Made by a program: the position numbers and the translations under genes
The notes under the pieces: model-generated
The model's input: the letters and a program-made list of their open reading frames with translations, nothing else
Database searches by the model: none
What the model was told of the DNA's origin: nothing
Shown: one piece after another, positions 27,311 to 56,818 of the stretch
Layout: each line of letters begins with the position of its first letter
Position numbering within the stretch: position 1 is the stretch's first letter
Assembly: GCA_050179755.1 (NCBI GenBank)
Contig: JBFXEV010000001.1
Span: forward strand, 1,001,994-1,065,993
Length of the DNA stretch: 64,000 nucleotides
Origin: Candidatus Babeliales bacterium
Lineage (GTDB): Bacteria; Babelota; Babeliae; Babelales; JBFXEV01
Direction: 5' to 3'

Positions 27311-27850
27311 TTACTTTGAATGTTCAATTAAGTATTTATATTCAGATGGGGTTATGCCCTTCAGAACAAAGGAGCAAATATTTAAATCAATATCCGTAAG
27401 AACACCAAAATTATTATTCATTATACATAAAACTGGCTTTGGCATAGTGGCTATTGAGATTTTCAATGCATCATTATAAACATCCACTTTACAAGCTTCT
27501 GTCATTGTATAATTAAAGCCATCATCAAGGTATGGCCTTCTTATTAATTGATTAATATCTTTAATTTTTAGTGCAATGGTGCTATTATTATAAGGAAGTT
27601 CTGCAAGTGAAATATTGCCTTTTATAAAATTATATTTTTTATTGCAAAGAAGAGTGATGCTAACTAATTCCCCAAATTCTTTTCCAATTTGAAAATACAT
27701 ATAATAATCTTGAGTACGATATTCAACTCGATTATGCGTATTTGAATATATGTCATATTCAAATGTTATATTCATGGGTATATATTCATCAATTAGTCTT
27801 TTTACATTAATGACTTTATTGGTAGCGAATTGAAAAAATAGGTCATTCAT
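27311..27850 (-). CDS. Putative immunity protein
   Basis: Starts 2 bp after the toxin stop; very AT-rich; no family recognised. Confidence 0.6.
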   Translation of the reverse strand: MNDLFFQFATNKVINVKRLIDEYIPMNITFEYDIYSNTHNRVEYRTQDYYMYFQIGKEFGELVSITLLCNKKYNFIKGNISLAELPYNNSTIALKIKDINQLIRRPYLDDGFNYTMTEACKVDVYNDALKISIATMPKPVLCIMNNNFGVLTDIDLNICSFVLKGITPSEYKYLIEHSK

Positions 27851-27852
27851 AA

Positions 27853-29610
27853 TTATTTCTTCTTAAAAGCATGGAAAAGGGCTGGATGTCCATCTTCAAC
27901 TCGCGGATAGCCGAATATTAATTCCCAAGAATTTATAATTATTAATTTCCCGTATTCTATACCCGAATCAGATTTTATTGCTTCCTGAATTGCTTCATAA
28001 AAATCATTAAGTAGTAATTCATGTGACAGTTTATATTCTTTTGCAGGAATATCCCAAGGGGATCTTTGCGGATCCATATATGGCCTGTCATTTTTACGTG
28101 GACTAGTATTTTCCATAATATGTTCGGATGCATTTGGGCTTACCCAGATTAATTGCCCATCAACATTAATTACAAATGATTTCGGTATTAGAGAATGTGG
28201 ATTATAAAGTTCTTGAGTAGGAGTAATTTTTAACCAAATTTTTTCAGGATTTTGATTGCTCAACGCTTGGATTATAGCTATAGTTTCTTCGAGAGTGATT
28301 TCAGGATTCGTTTTTATAGGAAAGCCAATATTAGTTTTATCTGTTTGATGATTTGAGTCTTCTGAATAATTATAGCTACGTTCATCAATTCTTTTGCTAT
28401 GGTTCCTAGAATCATTAACTCGCTTTATATGTGCATTATTAATTTGATTTTTGTCAGATACTTCTAATTGACTTAAATCAAATTTTGTGGGATTTTTGCT
28501 CCAGTTACATGAAGTTATTGGCTCAGCTATAGGTTGTAAGCCCGTGCCACAAGTATAACTTTCTCCGTCATTTATTTCTTGGGTGTAAGTAGGGTTATTT
28601 GCATTAATATCTTCAAATGATGGCATTCTTAAAGTTGTACCGCAAAAGCGCTCTTCGCTTTTTCTAGATTCTTGAAGACATGATGGGATATTGTCGTCAA
28701 GGCCCTGCGGTGCAGGCAATAATCCAGTTCCGCAACCAATAACATTAACGTCGTCAAATTTTGGAATAGGAAATGATCTAGTGTCATGTACGCTAGGTGG
28801 CCTTGGTAATTTCTTATGATCATAATGAGTTAGTTGGCTTTTTGTTGATTGCGGGTCATGAGCAAATACAGCGTTAGAACTATTATTTTCATTACCCAAA
28901 TACCCACGAACACTAGAATCTTTATTTGTTTCAAAGACACTACCTTTGCAATGCCCTGGAGAATTCAAAAGAGGATTAATTGAATCAAAGAGGTTAGAAT
29001 TAGAAATATCTAAATTCATATCTGTTGTGGCATGCGTATTTTTTGCTACAAAGTCATAAACCAAATATGTTGCCGCACCAACAGCAACTGCCTTTAAAAT
29101 CGGCATGACTCCAAGAGTTATTGGTATTACAATCATAAAATTATGAGCAACTATACCGCTGGGTGTGACACAAAATGTATGTGGCGCTTCAAGAGTAAGA
29201 TCATAGATAACAGCGTTTATATGCACTTGATTCACATTTTTGACCACAATCTGTTGCTTATAACAACTTTGTAATATTGTCTCAGGTATTAGATCAGGCG
29301 CGCAGCGCCACGCTTTTTCAATAGGTAAAAAAAATGATTGTTGGGTATCGGTAAGTATATGATTAGCATTTGTTTGAATATGAATAAGAGTAGAAACTTC
29401 GTGACAAGTGATCTCAATTATTGTTCGTAATGCAAACTCATTTGTAGACTCATCAAAGCAATAAACCTCATCATTAATTTGAAGTGCTTCTATTGGAATA
29501 AATCCATGTAACGTTTTGACTAATGTGCCTTCGACAAAACCTGCTTGCAAACATGCAAATTTAAGAAATACTATATAAGCAAATACGAAAGAAATTTTGT
29601 GCGATGACAT
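27853..29610 (-). CDS. Secreted Hint-domain polymorphic toxin 1 (C-terminal tip resembles CdiA-CT RNase/tRNase-type domains)
   Basis: Signal peptide, GFVEGTLVKT...IYDLTLEAPHTFCV...VAHN Hint domain, TSCNWS, tip IPKSF...IWVSPNASEH...WELIF...PALFHAF. Confidence 0.8.
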   Translation of the reverse strand: MSSHKISFVFAYIVFLKFACLQAGFVEGTLVKTLHGFIPIEALQINDEVYCFDESTNEFALRTIIEITCHEVSTLIHIQTNANHILTDTQQSFFLPIEKAWRCAPDLIPETILQSCYKQQIVVKNVNQVHINAVIYDLTLEAPHTFCVTPSGIVAHNFMIVIPITLGVMPILKAVAVGAATYLVYDFVAKNTHATTDMNLDISNSNLFDSINPLLNSPGHCKGSVFETNKDSSVRGYLGNENNSSNAVFAHDPQSTKSQLTHYDHKKLPRPPSVHDTRSFPIPKFDDVNVIGCGTGLLPAPQGLDDNIPSCLQESRKSEERFCGTTLRMPSFEDINANNPTYTQEINDGESYTCGTGLQPIAEPITSCNWSKNPTKFDLSQLEVSDKNQINNAHIKRVNDSRNHSKRIDERSYNYSEDSNHQTDKTNIGFPIKTNPEITLEETIAIIQALSNQNPEKIWLKITPTQELYNPHSLIPKSFVINVDGQLIWVSPNASEHIMENTSPRKNDRPYMDPQRSPWDIPAKEYKLSHELLLNDFYEAIQEAIKSDSGIEYGKLIIINSWELIFGYPRVEDGHPALFHAFKKK

Positions 29611-50934: not shown

Positions 50935-51170
50935 AGAAGTTGATCGTTTTGTTTTGTAATTATAAAGTGATATCTAGAATAACATTTTTTTCATATTCGC
51001 GATAATTTGGAAAAGCTTTAAAATAAAGGGCTTTTAAGCATTATACGCATCTACAAGTTTAATGCATGCTTGCAACTCTTGATAAATGGCCGTAGTCTAT
51101 CAATGCGTAAGTTGTATTGAATCTCGTTAAATGGCCTAGAATAATTGCAAACTTAAAAAGGGTTACAACA

Positions 51171-52946
51171 ATGATATACCGCAAAGCGTCTCTATTTTTA
51201 TTTTTTGCAACATTTTTTATTTGTTCACGTATAAAAGCTGGCTTTATTGAAGGAACGCTCGTTAAAACCTCTCAAGGCTTTGTGCCAATACAAGAATTGA
51301 GAATTGATGACGAAGTCTATGCATATGATACACGCACAGAAGAATTTGCAATACGCAGCATTGTGGCTAGTAATAGTCATGCAATATCTTCTTTGATCCA
51401 TCTGCAAGCCAATGGAAAACACCTTTTTGCTGATGCTGAACAGTTGTTTTACTTAGTCCTTGAAAAGAAATGGTGTTGTGCAAAAGATCTTCAGCCCGGA
51501 ATGTTGATGCAATCTTATCATGGGCAAAAAATTTTGGTGGAAAAGGTCAATGAACTCAATGTAAATAGCACTGTACATGAGATTACGCTTAATGAACCTC
51601 ACACTTTTTGCGTGACTGGCGATGGCATAGTTGTTCATAATTTTGCTTTTACCATCCCAATTTTGATTTTTGGTGCAGAAGGTATATCTCTTGCTAGTGG
51701 TATTGGTTCCGCATTAGTAAGCGGCGTCTGTGCAATAATTTGTTATAAAATTATTGCAGACACCGCTGGAGCAACCGTTGACCCTAATTTAGGTGTTTCT
51801 CAAGCTGATTTTTTAGGATCACAACAACAAAATATTAATCAAACAATAAATTATAACGCTCAAGCGAAGCATTATTCTCTAGCGCCTGATCACTCTCAAG
51901 CTACTGCAAAAAATACTGTCTTTTCTAGTCCAAAAACATCTGCTGACTTGGCAAGTAGCAGTTTTGAAAGATATCCTGGTGTGCATGATACACGGTCTTT
52001 CCCTGTCCCAAAATTGCCTATAGTCAATGCATGTGAAATTCCTGAAAAAAATAAGAATGGGCAGGAAATATCCACGTGCCCACCACCCAAAGAAGAAGAA
52101 CTATTACCAACGCTTGGTTGCGGCCAACCTCAAATGCCTGAGCCAATTATTTCTGGAGAATGTTTGCCCGATGTGCCAGAAGCGGACAGACTACAGTGTC
52201 CAGGAATTATTGGAGCATGGAAGCCGGAAGATGCGCAGACCTCATGCAATTGGAGCCGATCTCCACAGATACCCGGTTTGCTTGATATAAGTCCTGAAAA
52301 CGATTTACAAGAAGATTCAGGTGATAGTGAAGATGAAGCGCAAGTTGCCGACGATGAAATAACTGGCCAAAATGATGATGTTGCTCCCGCCAAGCCCAAA
52401 GAGAAAAATCAAAGGCAATCCAAAAAGAACTCACGACCATGGGATCTACCTAATCATGACCCAGCAATCGATATTGAGAAAATTGATTTTTCTGAAGTGC
52501 CTTATTTAACTCAAGAAGAAATCGAATTAATTAAAGAATGTATTGAACGATTTTTAGAGGTAGAAGGCTTTCTAGCAAATGATGGTGCTTTGTGGAGAAT
52601 ACTTAAATTTGAGGATCAAAAAAATGGAGCATTGTTTGAATTAGAATACATCAGTGAGTTGACTGATCAAGGCAGTACCATTATCAAAATGGGCTATGAA
52701 GTAAAAATACAAGGTGAAGTAATAGAAATTGATATTGAAACTGATACTGAATTAATAGAATGTAAATCTGGTACCTGGGAACTAAAAGAAGAAAATTACA
52801 TTAAGAAACTAAAGAAAAAGCTGCAGTTGGGAAAAGAACATAGCAAGAATCTGCAAAAGGAATTTGTAGTTGTTTCGAAAAAGTCAATTCCTACAATGTG
52901 GAAAAATTGGTTCATCGAAAACAATATAAATTTTAGAGAAAAATAA
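51171..52946 (+). CDS. Secreted Hint-domain polymorphic toxin 2 with a PD-(D/E)XK nuclease-like tip
   Basis: Signal peptide ending IKA, GFIEGTLVKT...VVHN Hint domain, TSCNWS, tip GALFELE...EIDIETDTELIECKSG. Confidence 0.82.
   Translation: MIYRKASLFLFFATFFICSRIKAGFIEGTLVKTSQGFVPIQELRIDDEVYAYDTRTEEFAIRSIVASNSHAISSLIHLQANGKHLFADAEQLFYLVLEKKWCCAKDLQPGMLMQSYHGQKILVEKVNELNVNSTVHEITLNEPHTFCVTGDGIVVHNFAFTIPILIFGAEGISLASGIGSALVSGVCAIICYKIIADTAGATVDPNLGVSQADFLGSQQQNINQTINYNAQAKHYSLAPDHSQATAKNTVFSSPKTSADLASSSFERYPGVHDTRSFPVPKLPIVNACEIPEKNKNGQEISTCPPPKEEELLPTLGCGQPQMPEPIISGECLPDVPEADRLQCPGIIGAWKPEDAQTSCNWSRSPQIPGLLDISPENDLQEDSGDSEDEAQVADDEITGQNDDVAPAKPKEKNQRQSKKNSRPWDLPNHDPAIDIEKIDFSEVPYLTQEEIELIKECIERFLEVEGFLANDGALWRILKFEDQKNGALFELEYISELTDQGSTIIKMGYEVKIQGEVIEIDIETDTELIECKSGTWELKEENYIKKLKKKLQLGKEHSKNLQKEFVVVSKKSIPTMWKNWFIENNINFREK
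52407..52562 (+). repeat. 156-bp exact direct repeat shared by toxin 2 and the orphan tip (54020-54175)
   Basis: Identical by eye from AATCAAAGGCAATCC to TTTTTAGAGGTA. Confidence 0.92.
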
Positions 52947-52948
52947 TC

Positions 52949-53812
52949 ATGAAAAGAACTTATTCATTTTGCGTTATGCTTAATTTAGATTATTCAGAGG
53001 AAAATATTTTTTCAATTCTCGAAAATGGTTCAAAATTAGGCTGCGTCTATAGAGATCATGGCCTCGGTGATACTCTTTCAAATATAGTTAATAGCAAAGA
53101 TGCCACAAAAGTTGTGTTGACTCGTTTTATCCAAGAATATGAATATGGACCTTATATTTTAGCAAAATTGGGTAAAACACATTATACTATTTGGTTTTAT
53201 CGTAGAAATAGTAAAATTTACTTGTGTATCGACCCTGATCATATCACATGGAAAAAACGTTATGAGCTGTGTGATTGGCAGGGTATCAATTTCTATCGCT
53301 ATCAAAGTTTTATATTAAGCTTAGTCGGTAACAATGTAATCACACATTTTAAAACGTATGAGTATTATAATGCAATTTATGCTGCAGAGTACAAAGAGCG
53401 TGATAAAAAAATATATGTAAAATTGAATACATATTGGGCGTATGATGTGTATCATCACCTAAAAGTGAATGGCAAGATACTAGGCATCATTTGGTTAGAT
53501 GCGAAGATGCAACCAATAAACATTAAAACTGAAGATAATACGCTTGAAAATATAATATATGATGAAAATAGGCAGCAATGTTGGTACGCTCTACACAACA
53601 ATATTGTATTAAAATTTTCTCTTATCGTAGGTCCAATTTTTATCATTGAGCCTATGAGTAATGGTAATTCCACCACAATGGATCAAGCACACGTGCTTGA
53701 TAGTGGCTTAAGAACTACTATTGAATTATTTAAAAATATGCCTGTTTTTAGATTTATCACCTTCAAGAGCGATGAAGACATAATTAATATCAACAAAATG
53801 GATGATAGATAG
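52949..53812 (+). CDS. Putative immunity protein, paralog 1
   Basis: Starts 2 bp after the toxin stop; two close paralogs downstream. Confidence 0.7.
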   Translation: MKRTYSFCVMLNLDYSEENIFSILENGSKLGCVYRDHGLGDTLSNIVNSKDATKVVLTRFIQEYEYGPYILAKLGKTHYTIWFYRRNSKIYLCIDPDHITWKKRYELCDWQGINFYRYQSFILSLVGNNVITHFKTYEYYNAIYAAEYKERDKKIYVKLNTYWAYDVYHHLKVNGKILGIIWLDAKMQPINIKTEDNTLENIIYDENRQQCWYALHNNIVLKFSLIVGPIFIIEPMSNGNSTTMDQAHVLDSGLRTTIELFKNMPVFRFITFKSDEDIININKMDDR

Positions 53813-53848
53813 TTATGTTTTCCGCATTAGCTTGGTTTTCTTGATTAG

Positions 53849-54565
53849 AGCAGGCATCCACATATATCCGGACTGCTTGATATAAGTCCTGAGAAAGATT
53901 ATCAAGAAGATGCTGACAATCAAGAAGATCCTGGTAATTGTGAAGATGATGCACCAGTTGTCGAAGGTGAAATAACTGGCCAAAATGATGATGTCGCTCC
54001 AACGAAGCCTAAAGAGAAGAATCAAAGGCAATCCAAAAAGAACTCACGACCATGGGATCTACCTAATCATGACCCAGCAATCGATATTGAGAAAATTGAT
54101 TTTTCTGAAGTGCCTTATTTAACTCAAGAAGAAATCGAATTAATTAAAGAATGTATTGAACGATTTTTAGAGGTACAAGGATTTATTGCAAAAGATGGTG
54201 CTCTCTGGAGAATACTTAAATTTGAAGCTCAAAAAGATGGGGCATATTTTGAATTAGAATACATCATTGAGCTGAGTGATCAAGGCCGTAAAATTATTAA
54301 AATGGGTGAGGAAGTCAAAGTACATGATGGATTAGTTGAAATTGACATTGAAACTGACATTGAATTAATAGAATGTAAATCCGGTATTTGGGAAATTAAG
54401 AATGCGCAAATAATTAAGAATTTACAAGATAAACTATTGTCTGCAAAAGAATATGGCAAACAGTTACAAAAATCATTTGTTGTAGTTACTAAAAAACAAA
54501 TTCCACCGATGTGGCAAAACTGGCTTGATCAAAATAATATTAACCATAGAGATTGGGAACCATAA
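53849..54565 (+). pseudogene. Orphan toxin C-terminal cassette (no signal peptide or Hint domain)
   Basis: Open frame from 53849 SRHPHISGLLDISPE... aligns to toxin 2 from NWSR onward; EIDIETDIELIECKSG intact. Confidence 0.85.
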
Positions 54566-54639
54566 GGAATAGTTATTCTTTGAAAAATTAGTTAATTAAA
54601 AATACTTAAAATGATTTTTTGGTTATTGAATAATTTCTT

Positions 54640-55016
54640 ACAAATGCTAATGCTCTCTTGAGTTACTCGAATCCGTAGAGCAAAAATTGAGCATTATTTA
54701 AATTAGAATATATCATGGAGCTGAAATGAACAAGACTAGACCAATTATTAAAATGGGACATAAGTTTGCAGTGCAGGAGGAACTAATAGAAATTGATATT
54801 GAAACTGATACTGAATTAATAATATGTAAATCTAGCGTTTGGGAGCAAACGAGAACAGATAAAATTAATAATTTAAAAAATAAGTTATTCCTTGCAGGAA
54901 AATGTGGCAATGGCATGGGAAAGCCATTCGTCATAGTTTCTAAAAAAATCATTCCGCTAGAGTGGAAAAATTGGTTTAATAAAAATAATATTAAATATAG
55001 AGAATGGCAACGATGA
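54640..55016 (+). pseudogene. Second, degraded orphan toxin tip
   Basis: IIKMG...EIDIETDTELIICKSS...W.NWF; upstream ALFKLEYIMEL in another frame; ATGA overlap with the next gene. Confidence 0.78.
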
Positions 55017-55873
55017 GTAAAAATTATGAATTTTTAGCTATGTTAGACTTAAAATATTCAAAAGAGAACAGTCTATTAATTCTTGAAAATGGAACAAGAA
55101 TGGGATGCATTTTCAAAAACCAAAGATTTACTAATCCTGAGGTAGCTATAATTGATAAATTTTCTGCCATGGAACTTGTTTGGTCACGTCATCTAGAAAA
55201 TTATGAATATGGGCCACTTGTATATGCTAAATATTATAAAACGCATTTTGCAATTTGGTTTTACAATAAAAATAATAAAATATATTTATACTTAAGCCCG
55301 ACTCATATTGGATGGAAAAAACGATATGATCTGTGTGATTGGTATGGCATTCATTTTTACCGCTATCAAAGTTTTATGTTGCGCTTAATTGGCAACAATA
55401 AAATTACACATTTTGAAACGTATGAGTACTTTAATGCTTCCTATGATGCTGAAGATATGTCTTATAACACCAAAATATATGTAAAATTGTATACGTATTG
55501 GGCTTATGATGTGCACCATCACTTAAAAGTAAATGGCAAGATACTAGGCATTATTTGGTTAGATGCTAAGATGCAACCAATGAGCATTAAAACTGAAGAC
55601 AATTCGATTGAAAATATTCTATATGATGAAAATAGGCAGCAATGTTGGTTCGCTATACACCATAACATCTTATTAAAATTTTCTATGCCAGCAGACCGTA
55701 CTTTTATCATTGAGCCTATGAGTAACGGCAGCTCTGCCATAAATCAAGCAGAATTGCTCGATAGTGGTTTAAGAACTATTATTGAACTATTTAAAAATAT
55801 GCCTGTTTTTAGATTAATTACCTTTAAGAGCGATGAAGATCTAATTAATATCAATAAGATGGATGATAGATAA
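55013..55873 (+). CDS. Putative immunity protein, paralog 2
   Basis: WKKRY.LC, FYRYQSF, HHLKVNGK, FKSDEDLININKMDD shared with paralog 1. Confidence 0.72.
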   Translation: MSKNYEFLAMLDLKYSKENSLLILENGTRMGCIFKNQRFTNPEVAIIDKFSAMELVWSRHLENYEYGPLVYAKYYKTHFAIWFYNKNNKIYLYLSPTHIGWKKRYDLCDWYGIHFYRYQSFMLRLIGNNKITHFETYEYFNASYDAEDMSYNTKIYVKLYTYWAYDVHHHLKVNGKILGIIWLDAKMQPMSIKTEDNSIENILYDENRQQCWFAIHHNILLKFSMPADRTFIIEPMSNGSSAINQAELLDSGLRTIIELFKNMPVFRLITFKSDEDLININKMDDR

Positions 55874-55951
55874 TTGCATTTTATGTATTTGCATTATTTT
55901 CTTGAAGAGTTGACTTGATTTAAATAATATTAAATATACGAAATGGCAATC

Positions 55952-56818
55952 ATGAGTAGAAATTTTGAATTTTCCGCAATGCTAAATTTATGCCATTCTA
56001 AGGAAAATATTTTTTCAATTCTAGAAAATGGGGCAAAATTAGGTTGCGTTTATAAAAACACCAGATTTACAAATCCTAATGTTAAGATAGTTAATATTTC
56101 TCTTGCTGCTGAACTTGTTTTGTCTCGTTTTATTGAGGACAGCGAAGAGGGTCCGCTTATTTATGTTAAATATCATAAAAATAATTTTGCTCTTTGGTTT
56201 TATAATATAAGCAACAAAATCTATTTGTTTATGAGCCCGACTCATATTGGATGGAAAAAAAGATATGATCTTTGTAATTCCTATGGTATTAATTTCTATC
56301 GTTATCAAAGTTTTATGTTGCGCTTAATCGGCAACAATATAATCACACATTTTGAAACTTTTGAATATTTCAATGAAGCCTTTGATGCAGAAGATATGCT
56401 TCATAACACCAAAGTATATGTAAAATTGTATATGTATTGGCCATATGATGTGTATCATCATCTAAAAGTAAATGGCAAGATGCTAGGCATTACCTGGTTA
56501 GATGCAAACAAACAGCCAATAGATCTTAAAGCTAAAGATAATGCGCTTGAAAGCATGCTCAACGATGAAGAAAGTGAGCAATGTTGGTATGCTATTCGTA
56601 ATAATATTGTATTAAAATTTTCTCTTACCGCAGGTCCTATTTTTATCATTGAACCTATGATCTCACCTTCGCTGAATTCCGGTACGCTAGATCAAGCACA
56701 AGTGTTTGATACTGGCTTGAGAACGACTATCGAATTATTTAGAAACGTGCACGTTTTTAGATTAATTACCTTTAAAAGTAATGAAGATCTAATTAATATC
56801 AACAAAATGGATGATTGA
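55952..56818 (+). CDS. Putative immunity protein, paralog 3 (orphan)
   Basis: Same motifs; preceded only by a roughly 30-bp remnant of a toxin 3' end. Confidence 0.72.
   Translation: MSRNFEFSAMLNLCHSKENIFSILENGAKLGCVYKNTRFTNPNVKIVNISLAAELVLSRFIEDSEEGPLIYVKYHKNNFALWFYNISNKIYLFMSPTHIGWKKRYDLCNSYGINFYRYQSFMLRLIGNNIITHFETFEYFNEAFDAEDMLHNTKVYVKLYMYWPYDVYHHLKVNGKMLGITWLDANKQPIDLKAKDNALESMLNDEESEQCWYAIRNNIVLKFSLTAGPIFIIEPMISPSLNSGTLDQAQVFDTGLRTTIELFRNVHVFRLITFKSNEDLININKMDD

Follow-up and report, generated by a model that had tools for sequence, protein, structure and literature searches.

We analysed a window (the whole stretch of DNA considered here, 64,000 nucleotides) from a Candidatus Babeliales genome, in which two full-length toxins, toxin 1 (P0001) and toxin 2 (P0002), each carry the hexapeptide TSCNWS (52239-52256 on the plus strand and 28498-28515 on the minus strand). 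We consider it rather probable that TSCNWS closes a new, lineage-restricted pre-toxin linker in an otherwise ordinary polymorphic-toxin locus, and that the zone in which tips are swapped is loose and not exact. The linker, a ladder of regularly spaced cysteines, would lie between the trafficking part of the toxin and an acidic disordered spacer plus tip, in a few Babeliales (Dependentiae). An earlier note on this DNA, made from the sequence alone, had placed both copies of TSCNWS, with similarity lost downstream of them, and VHDTRSFP(V/I)PK and GCG motifs upstream in both toxins; all of this was recovered in our analysis.

The seven linkers aligned come from three genera, which lie in different families of the order, and share four invariant cysteine columns. 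The 115 residues up to the motif contain 5-7 cysteines, for the most part at intervals of 12-18 residues. The ladder often begins with CG(T)G, and the linker measures 60-110 residues with the motif as its closing element. The tryptophan is fixed across linkers, apart from a tyrosine in one lineage (G104), and the residues between the cysteine columns change freely. Because of the invariant columns and the regular spacing, we read TSCNWS as the last rung of the ladder and not as a free-standing signature. A six-frame translation of the 1.525 Mb genome of the window (G000; a single contig, G+C 39%) contains seven copies of CNWS, three in toxin frames of 591-912 codons and four in frames of 5-28 codons; by these genome-wide counts TSCNWS exceeds chance. 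The third G000 protein with the motif, DSCNWSQ, is a 912-codon frame without HINT (G000:C1, about 677-680 kb), and its counterpart in the second genome of the same genus (G001) has 942 codons and reads TSCGWSK. Two tandem HINT toxins of G001 carry T(S/L)CSWSN, a genome from a different family of the order (G164) carries two copies of AECNWSK, and the G104 lineage has (G/T)CNYGTQ; the variants overall are C(N/S/G)WS and CNYG, and the motif was found with differing tips in three genera of the order. An N-glycosylation sequon (N-W-S) was ruled out as an explanation, relatives having S or G in place of N, as was an internal lipobox (I/V-T-S-C), because the preceding residues vary (Q, R, D, E, G, K) and a signal-peptide core is absent upstream.

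A profile of the linker matched four of the 261 genomes of the order (G000, G001, G104 and G164); the family-level genome search covered one other genome. Among 1.84 billion representative proteins the profile gave 10 matches at E<=1e-3, seven of which we judged from their sequences to be true relatives and three unrelated, and P0012, P0013 and P0014 were added by a word-indexed search of 5.8 billion clusters. A word-indexed search with residues 280-400 of P0001 returned the self match only, and a related-locus search with the tip alignment yielded one locus. Two metagenome proteins, P0007 and P0011, were dropped as relatives, being long repeat proteins with GCGWS or SCSWS within a different repeat (...TPEGCGWSRSDG... 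or ...TPASCSWSSRDG... in each repeat) and, by reading, not toxins; P0010, an Ala/Gly-rich repeat protein, was dropped as well. A Pfam scan of the seven linkers at E<=10 gave nothing relevant, the lone hit being IL23 (E 0.11) in one member.

For a module matrix of all pairs, 13 proteins were split into carrier, linker (the last 110 residues, ending at the motif) and tip. The linker occurs on four carrier classes, HINT, N1, N2 and N3, of which N1 and N3 are distantly and N2 and N1 faintly related, and at least four kinds of tip follow it: PD-(D/E)xK, EndoU and two of unassigned family. The PD-(D/E)xK-like tip is found on the HINT protein P0001, on four N1 proteins and on one N2 protein, and the EndoU tip on N2 (P0008, by the precomputed PF14436 assignment) and N3 (two proteins). 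One unassigned kind sits on HINT (P0002 and two G001 paralogues), another on N2 (P0009), and a third HINT protein of G000 bears Ntox37. Constant carriers with variable tips were found in both directions: like carriers with different tips (proteins A versus B; I versus J versus K) and like tips on different carriers (A versus E to H and I). In an 897-amino-acid non-HINT carrier protein Pfam recognised no family.

The ends of high-scoring segment pairs (HSPs) from BLAST without composition correction over-ran the acidic spacer, and junctions were instead taken from windowed identity on MAFFT alignments. Relative to the motif cysteine they lie at about -76, -16, 0, +7 to +10 and +30 residues. Counted in 10-residue windows from the cysteine, P0001 shares 3-5/10 identities with P0002 and the two G001 paralogues in the first window (0-9) and 0/10 in the next, the G104-type protein I shares 7, 2-3 and 0 with J and K, and J and K share 10, 8, 5 and 0 with each other, which therefore break near +30. 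In an alignment that reaches slightly past the motif, P0001 and P0002 are 31% identical (BLASTP, E 6e-65), and compared downstream of the motif they gave no HSP at E<=1e-3. At the other end of the range, P0001 resembles the N1 proteins from 72-76 residues upstream of the cysteine onward. Its ladder is 48% identical to the 942-codon G001 protein (E 1.4e-13) versus 31% to its HINT paralogue P0002 (E 0.002), and its linker identity to non-HINT carriers amounts to 43-48% for F, G and H and 32% for E. Because ladder and tip are nearer to the N1 proteins than to the HINT paralogue, toxin 1 is a chimera, composed of a HINT carrier through VHDTRSFPVPK and a ladder-plus-tip unit of the non-HINT class, with the immunity gene probably included.

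Linkers may also be incomplete or missing. P0014 (HINT and Ntox37) shares about 85-90% identity with the G001 toxins as far as the penultimate cysteine, diverges there, 16 residues before the motif position, and lacks the motif, the linker of a 424-amino-acid HINT toxin of G000 stops after the first CGTG, and a 237-amino-acid HINT toxin of G001 is without linker entirely; C(N/S)WS is present in four of the seven HINT toxins of the genus-level set and absent from three. The earlier note had taken TSCNWS for a family-defining boundary like VENN or DPxG and had expected homologues to diverge right after it. The motif does end the conserved part and recurs before different tips, and similarity usually ends after it; on the other side, it is part of a ladder, three HINT toxins do without it and the junctions hold to no fixed point between -76 and +30. 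As a boundary rule the motif is weaker than VENN or DPxG. We picture it as the usual, not obligatory, left edge of the exchanged part: similarity between toxins with different tips usually ends shortly past it because no further conserved protein element separates it from the tip. Exchange of tips is not bound to the motif. Units of linker, tip and immunity gene are also transferred whole from one carrier to another, the junction then preceding the ladder, and some junctions lie within the ladder or as far as about 30 residues past it.

The frame of toxin 1 (51117-52946 on the plus strand, 609 codons) is arranged as leader, PT-HINT, hydrophobic segment, VHDTRSFP, cysteine ladder, acidic spacer and PD-(D/E)xK tip. 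PF07591 matches P0001 (E 2.4e-10, 41.2 bits) as well as P0002 (E 1.4e-6, 29.0 bits) above the cut-off of 27.7. Both toxins start with a hydrophobic leader ending in A-x-A, directly followed by GF(I/V)EGT, and in both the HINT domain closes with HN (VVHN|F and VAHN|F) before a hydrophobic Gly/Ala-rich stretch; downstream of it VHDTRSFP(V/I)PK, a GCG(Q/T) motif and TSCNWS follow in that order. In toxin 1, 15 of the 60 residues next after the motif are D or E, and AlphaFold predicts linker and spacer as disordered and the tip with confidence (10-row alignment). The HINT domains retain His-Asn, and Gly stands at the first position, that of the nucleophile, in both window toxins and in 15 frames of other genera. 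The leader would be cut at AxA|G, so that the HINT domain would head the mature protein; since Gly replaces the first nucleophile, only C-terminal cleavage at HN|F seems plausible. Such cleavage by Asn cyclisation would set free the downstream part, made up of hydrophobic segment, ladder, spacer and tip, and release from the carrier is more plausibly attributed to HINT at HN|F than to the motif. After Sec export, the ladder cysteines may form loops or a hinge presenting or releasing the tip, that is, a disulfide-looped or otherwise thiol-dependent hinge with TSCNWS as its last rung.

The earlier note had also offered TSCNWS as a second processing site. On this reading the tip would be severed from the carrier at or next to C(N/S/G)WS, either by a protease or through the thiol chemistry of the cysteine, in the manner of Rhs tips at DPxG. 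The position of a short protein-level motif at the end of the constant part, with a disordered spacer behind it, would suit this, as would the fact that no releasing peptidase is recognised in the non-HINT carriers (the 897-amino-acid protein has no Pfam family), and pre-toxin domains have been proposed as proteolytic processing sites (Zhang et al. 2012, PMC3482391). However, no peptidase-like domain or fold was seen around the motif, the residue after the cysteine varies (N, S, G; CNYG in the G104 lineage), the three HINT toxins lacking the motif, one of them any linker, manage without it, and HINT carriers already have the predicted release site HN|F. We regard a processing site at the motif as unlikely.

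Orphan tip 1, found downstream of toxin 1, bears on another explanation, a strict recombination anchor for tip-cassette exchange as proposed for the VENN region in CdiA. Its translation is '...LGFLD*SRHPHISGLLDISPEKD...', with an open frame that extends from 53849 to a stop codon at 54563-54565. DNA similarity to the main tip runs from ATT(G/A)GAGC onward, with two identities in the preceding 13 bases, and a TAG at 53846-53848 stands opposite the TGG of the main gene. The alignment thus upholds what the earlier note had stated, that the orphan starts at the motif with TGG changed to TAG at 53846, similarity setting in just after the Cys codon. This start within one codon of the cysteine favours an anchor, and so does the loss of similarity 0-30 residues after the motif among carrier-sharing proteins with different tips. 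Nevertheless, the 18 bases of the motif vary at synonymous sites in every copy compared (ACC TCA TGC AAT TGG AGC versus ACT TCA TGT AAC TGG AGC versus GAT TCT TGT AAT TGG AGT), so that it is no conserved anchor at the DNA level. Because the codons differ synonymously between copies, the motif is kept by selection as protein and not as a DNA recombination site. The carriers of P0001 and P0002 are, moreover, only 31-41% identical in protein, too distant for homologous exchange; ladder and tip of P0001 were taken whole from the non-HINT class, with the junction some 76 residues upstream, and in P0014 similarity is lost 16 residues ahead of the motif, at the preceding cysteine. Among the four orphan tip fragments of G000 and G001 only one starts at the motif, the others beginning about 85, 94 and 117 residues downstream.

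The DNA identity between main tip and orphan likewise lies downstream of the motif. Over 230 codons their ratio of nonsynonymous to synonymous substitution rates (dN/dS) is 0.27, and a 156-nucleotide identical run (52540-52700 versus 54050-54200) within a background of roughly 80% identity suggests recent gene conversion between them. Synonymous divergence amounts to about 0.2-0.4 over the first 160 codons and reaches saturation (3.0) over the final 70. Because of the identical run and this profile, exchange or conversion is placed within the tip; main tip and orphan 1 recombine or co-evolve downstream of the motif, and the variable part is the tip end. Taken with the scattered junctions, we hold a strict anchor to be quite improbable. 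Least probable, and in our view very unlikely, is a motif with no function of its own, inherited with a recently spread linker and only by coincidence at the orphan boundary: the very narrow distribution, the predicted disorder of the linker and its dispensability in some toxins agree with this, but four cysteine columns and a tryptophan (Y only in the G104 lineage) stay fixed amid freely changing residues in three genera of different families, and synonymous codon variation indicates purifying selection.

Several points weigh against a pre-toxin linker with a loose swap zone. The start of orphan 1 within one codon of the cysteine would be a striking coincidence if the motif were irrelevant to cassette exchange. 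The AlphaFold model shows the linker without a fold, though from a shallow alignment of 10 rows. There are five cysteines in B, I, J and K versus seven in E, and an all-paired disulfide scheme would fail for some members. Furthermore, the relatives are few and not independent (13 linkers from about four genomes and metagenome proteins). A bolder extension of the linker reading, which we think improbable, is a thiol- or redox-sensitive hinge as a new pre-toxin device of obligate intracellular bacteria parasitic on protists. It would tether the tip in an oxidising compartment and release or unfold it at the last cysteine in the reducing cytosol of the target, and it would serve four unrelated carrier types, including an undescribed leader|HINT(Gly1)-HN|hydrophobic-segment carrier widespread among Babeliales.

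Table. Features of the two toxin loci, with positions in the window (aa, amino acids; pLDDT, predicted local distance difference test).
Feature	Position	Strand	Remarks
Full-length toxin 1 (P0001)	51171..52946	+	591 aa; probable start ATG 51171; protein on record as 591 aa
PT-HINT domain of toxin 1	51258..51641	+	Residues 48-175 of the 609-codon frame; start A|GFIEGT, end VVHN|F
Hydrophobic Gly/Ala-rich segment of toxin 1 (FAFTIPILIFGAEGISLASGIGSALVSGVCAIICYKII)	51642..51755	+	Adjoins HN; read from the sequence, putative topology
VHDTRSFPVPK motif of toxin 1	51981..52013	+	End of the part common with HINT paralogues
Cys-ladder pre-toxin linker of toxin 1	52017..52256	+	6 Cys, spacings 12-16 residues
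TSCNWS of toxin 1	52239..52256	+	Last ladder Cys
Acidic low-complexity spacer of toxin 1	52257..52421	+	Predicted disordered; pLDDT <50 over model residues 30-140
Folded tip of toxin 1, predicted PD-(D/E)xK nuclease fold (EIDIETD...LIECK)	52422..52943	+	pLDDT mostly >90, VIA-align, conserved columns
Candidate immunity gene 1	52949..53812	+	287 aa; 55-64% identical to paralogues that G000 and G001 carry behind this tip family; without Pfam family
Orphan tip 1	53843..54565	+	Similarity to main gene from after the Cys codon; without start codon or carrier
Orphan tip 2	54592..55004	+	3' fragment in two pieces; begins ~94 residues past the motif position
Candidate immunity gene 2	55004..55873	+	289 aa; paralogue of immunity gene 1
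Candidate immunity gene 3	55943..56818	+	291 aa; paralogue of immunity gene 1
Full-length toxin 2 (P0002)	27853..29610	-	585 aa; carrier class as toxin 1, own Cys ladder, other tip family
TSCNWS of toxin 2	28498..28515	-	ACT TCA TGT AAC TGG AGC; 3 synonymous differences versus the copy at 52239
Candidate immunity gene of toxin 2	27311..27850	-	179 aa; 66% identical to the gene behind the orthologous toxin in G001

The string behind toxin 1 consists of three paralogous candidate immunity genes (55-64% identity), whose immunity function is predicted, and two orphan tips, and the toxin-immunity pairs are conserved in G001. By its gene content this is a standard polymorphic-toxin locus, in which a silent tip that is nearly complete is accompanied by a tip fragment; the layout (cassette exchange, immunity strings) agrees with that given by Zhang et al. 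2012 (PMC3482391). The 912-codon G000 protein shares the tip family of toxin 1 and is accompanied by a homologous immunity gene. This non-HINT toxin (G000:C1:677101-679900, minus strand; loci L003/L047) ends early (…KLRKNYNGQKK*), and the last 50 or so tip residues lie in another frame with a TGA; because of the early end and the tip continuing in the other frame, the gene seems to be frameshifted at its 3' end, with the immunity gene intact. A locus of G001 (L044, G001:C1:1150000-1164000) holds two tandem units of a toxin and two immunity genes, followed by orphan tip fragments, extra immunity copies and four tandem genes of about 95 amino acids. These small genes, which also flank the Ntox37 toxin in L045, probably confer immunity to Ntox37.

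The tip of toxin 1 was modelled from a 10-row alignment, with pLDDT mostly >90 over the last ~170 residues. In a Foldseek search against the PDB the best rows were PD-(D/E)xK nucleases, with a best E of 1.1e-3 and none <=0.001, which lends support only jointly with VIA-align. There, the Z scores were 8.5 for 1y88 (root-mean-square deviation 3.0, 101 aligned), 8.2 for 2okf, 8.0 for 2vld, 7.2 for TseT (7dym) and 6.0 for CdiA-CT (4g6u); the top rows were mostly PD-(D/E)xK nucleases, a Z near 8 being only moderate. Across 10 sequences the columns E242-I243-D244 and E253-C254-K255 are fully or almost fully conserved. The model assigns the tip to the PD-(D/E)xK superfamily fold, with an alpha-beta-beta-beta-alpha-beta core whose strands bear D...(D/E)xK, and metal-dependent nuclease activity is predicted. 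Compared with PDB sequences the tip gave two chance-level hits (E 0.43 and 0.64), and Pfam on the tips at E<=10 returned nothing relevant and no Tox-REase match. A (R/S)PWD(L/I)P stretch occurs just before the folded part in P0001 (~440-445) and P0002 (~517-522), whose tips are otherwise unrelated; the match is not significant (E 0.71).

The HINT part is distributed more widely than the linker: matches to P0001 were obtained in 79 of 201 genomes of the order, in nearly all cases confined to residues 20-210. A first pattern for the HINT start recognised 16 frames in 28 loci of other genera (L016-L043), none of which has C.W(S/T) or HDT. With a second pattern, applied to 27 loci (L040 left out), 15 frames were recognised and 12 were not, the latter loci not having been inspected by eye; all 15 start GF..GT, and 13 show HN and then a hydrophobic stretch. 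Together with the window copies (51171-51755, and 29050-29610 on the minus strand) these loci look like a carrier family with an AxA leader, a Gly1 HINT domain, HN, a hydrophobic Gly-rich segment and variable tips, and this family may be more worthy of study than the motif. The N1 and N2 carriers (L047, L046, P0008, P0013) have, after the leader, a second Ala/Gly-rich hydrophobic segment resembling the one behind HN in HINT carriers.

The window additionally codes for a TLC ATP/ADP transporter and a 1289-amino-acid ankyrin-repeat protein, which fit an intracellular parasite. Much is known about the polymorphic toxins of free-living and pathogenic bacteria; in the sources accessible to us, which did not include subscription journals and were judged partly by title and start of abstract, we found no published account of such toxins in Dependentiae/Babeliales, of a cysteine-rich pre-toxin element or of an N-terminal HINT carrier family in this group. 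Our analysis shows that these parasites, despite their reduced genomes, maintain a working system of cassette exchange that comprises several carriers, several tips and silent cassettes, and that a previously unnamed Cys-rich linker marks the tip-swap zone. The linker profile provides a practical annotation flag for toxin tips in Babeliales genomes, and the linker itself a testable site for tip release or translocation.

Several known systems share parts of this arrangement. As in the PT-HINT of Sec-exported polymorphic toxins, both toxins of the window score above the PF07591 cut-off and possess the HN pair for cleavage by Asn cyclisation, but their HINT domain stands at the very N-terminus after the leader (AxA|GF), begins with Gly and is followed by a hydrophobic segment, whereas the usual layout places HINT just before the tip (in part after Zhang et al. 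2012, PMC3482391). With Tox-REase/PD-(D/E)xK tips such as TseT and CdiA-CT(EC869), toxin 1 shares the fold and the D...ExK signature of its tip; the identity of this tip to the solved chains is only 8-21%, Pfam gives no Tox-REase match, and its target may be DNA or RNA. PT-TG (PF14449) is likewise a pre-toxin element, with a small-residue TG signature before the tips, and ladder units here often read CGTG; none of the seven linkers, however, matches its model at E<=10, and PT-TG is not known to be cysteine-based. In Rhs/YD proteins, too, a conserved DPxG...DPxG motif lies between a constant carrier and variable tips, with orphan tips downstream, and the tips are released by autoproteolysis at the DPxG boundary. 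The window toxins have no RHS repeats or aspartyl-protease core (Pfam finds only PT-HINT in both toxins, and nothing in the 897-amino-acid carrier), the seven aligned linkers contain no DPxG pair, and a putative cleavage at CNWS would require chemistry other than that of Rhs. In CdiA, VENN acts as the fixed point of tip divergence (see also Table 1 of PMC3482391); the window toxins differ in having no PT-VENN hit in Pfam, junctions scattered from -76 to +30, no TpsA/FHA carrier and a motif that is the last cysteine of a ladder. What they share with CdiA PT-VENN is the plan of the locus, a short conserved element ending the constant part, different tips after it, and immunity genes and orphan cassettes downstream.

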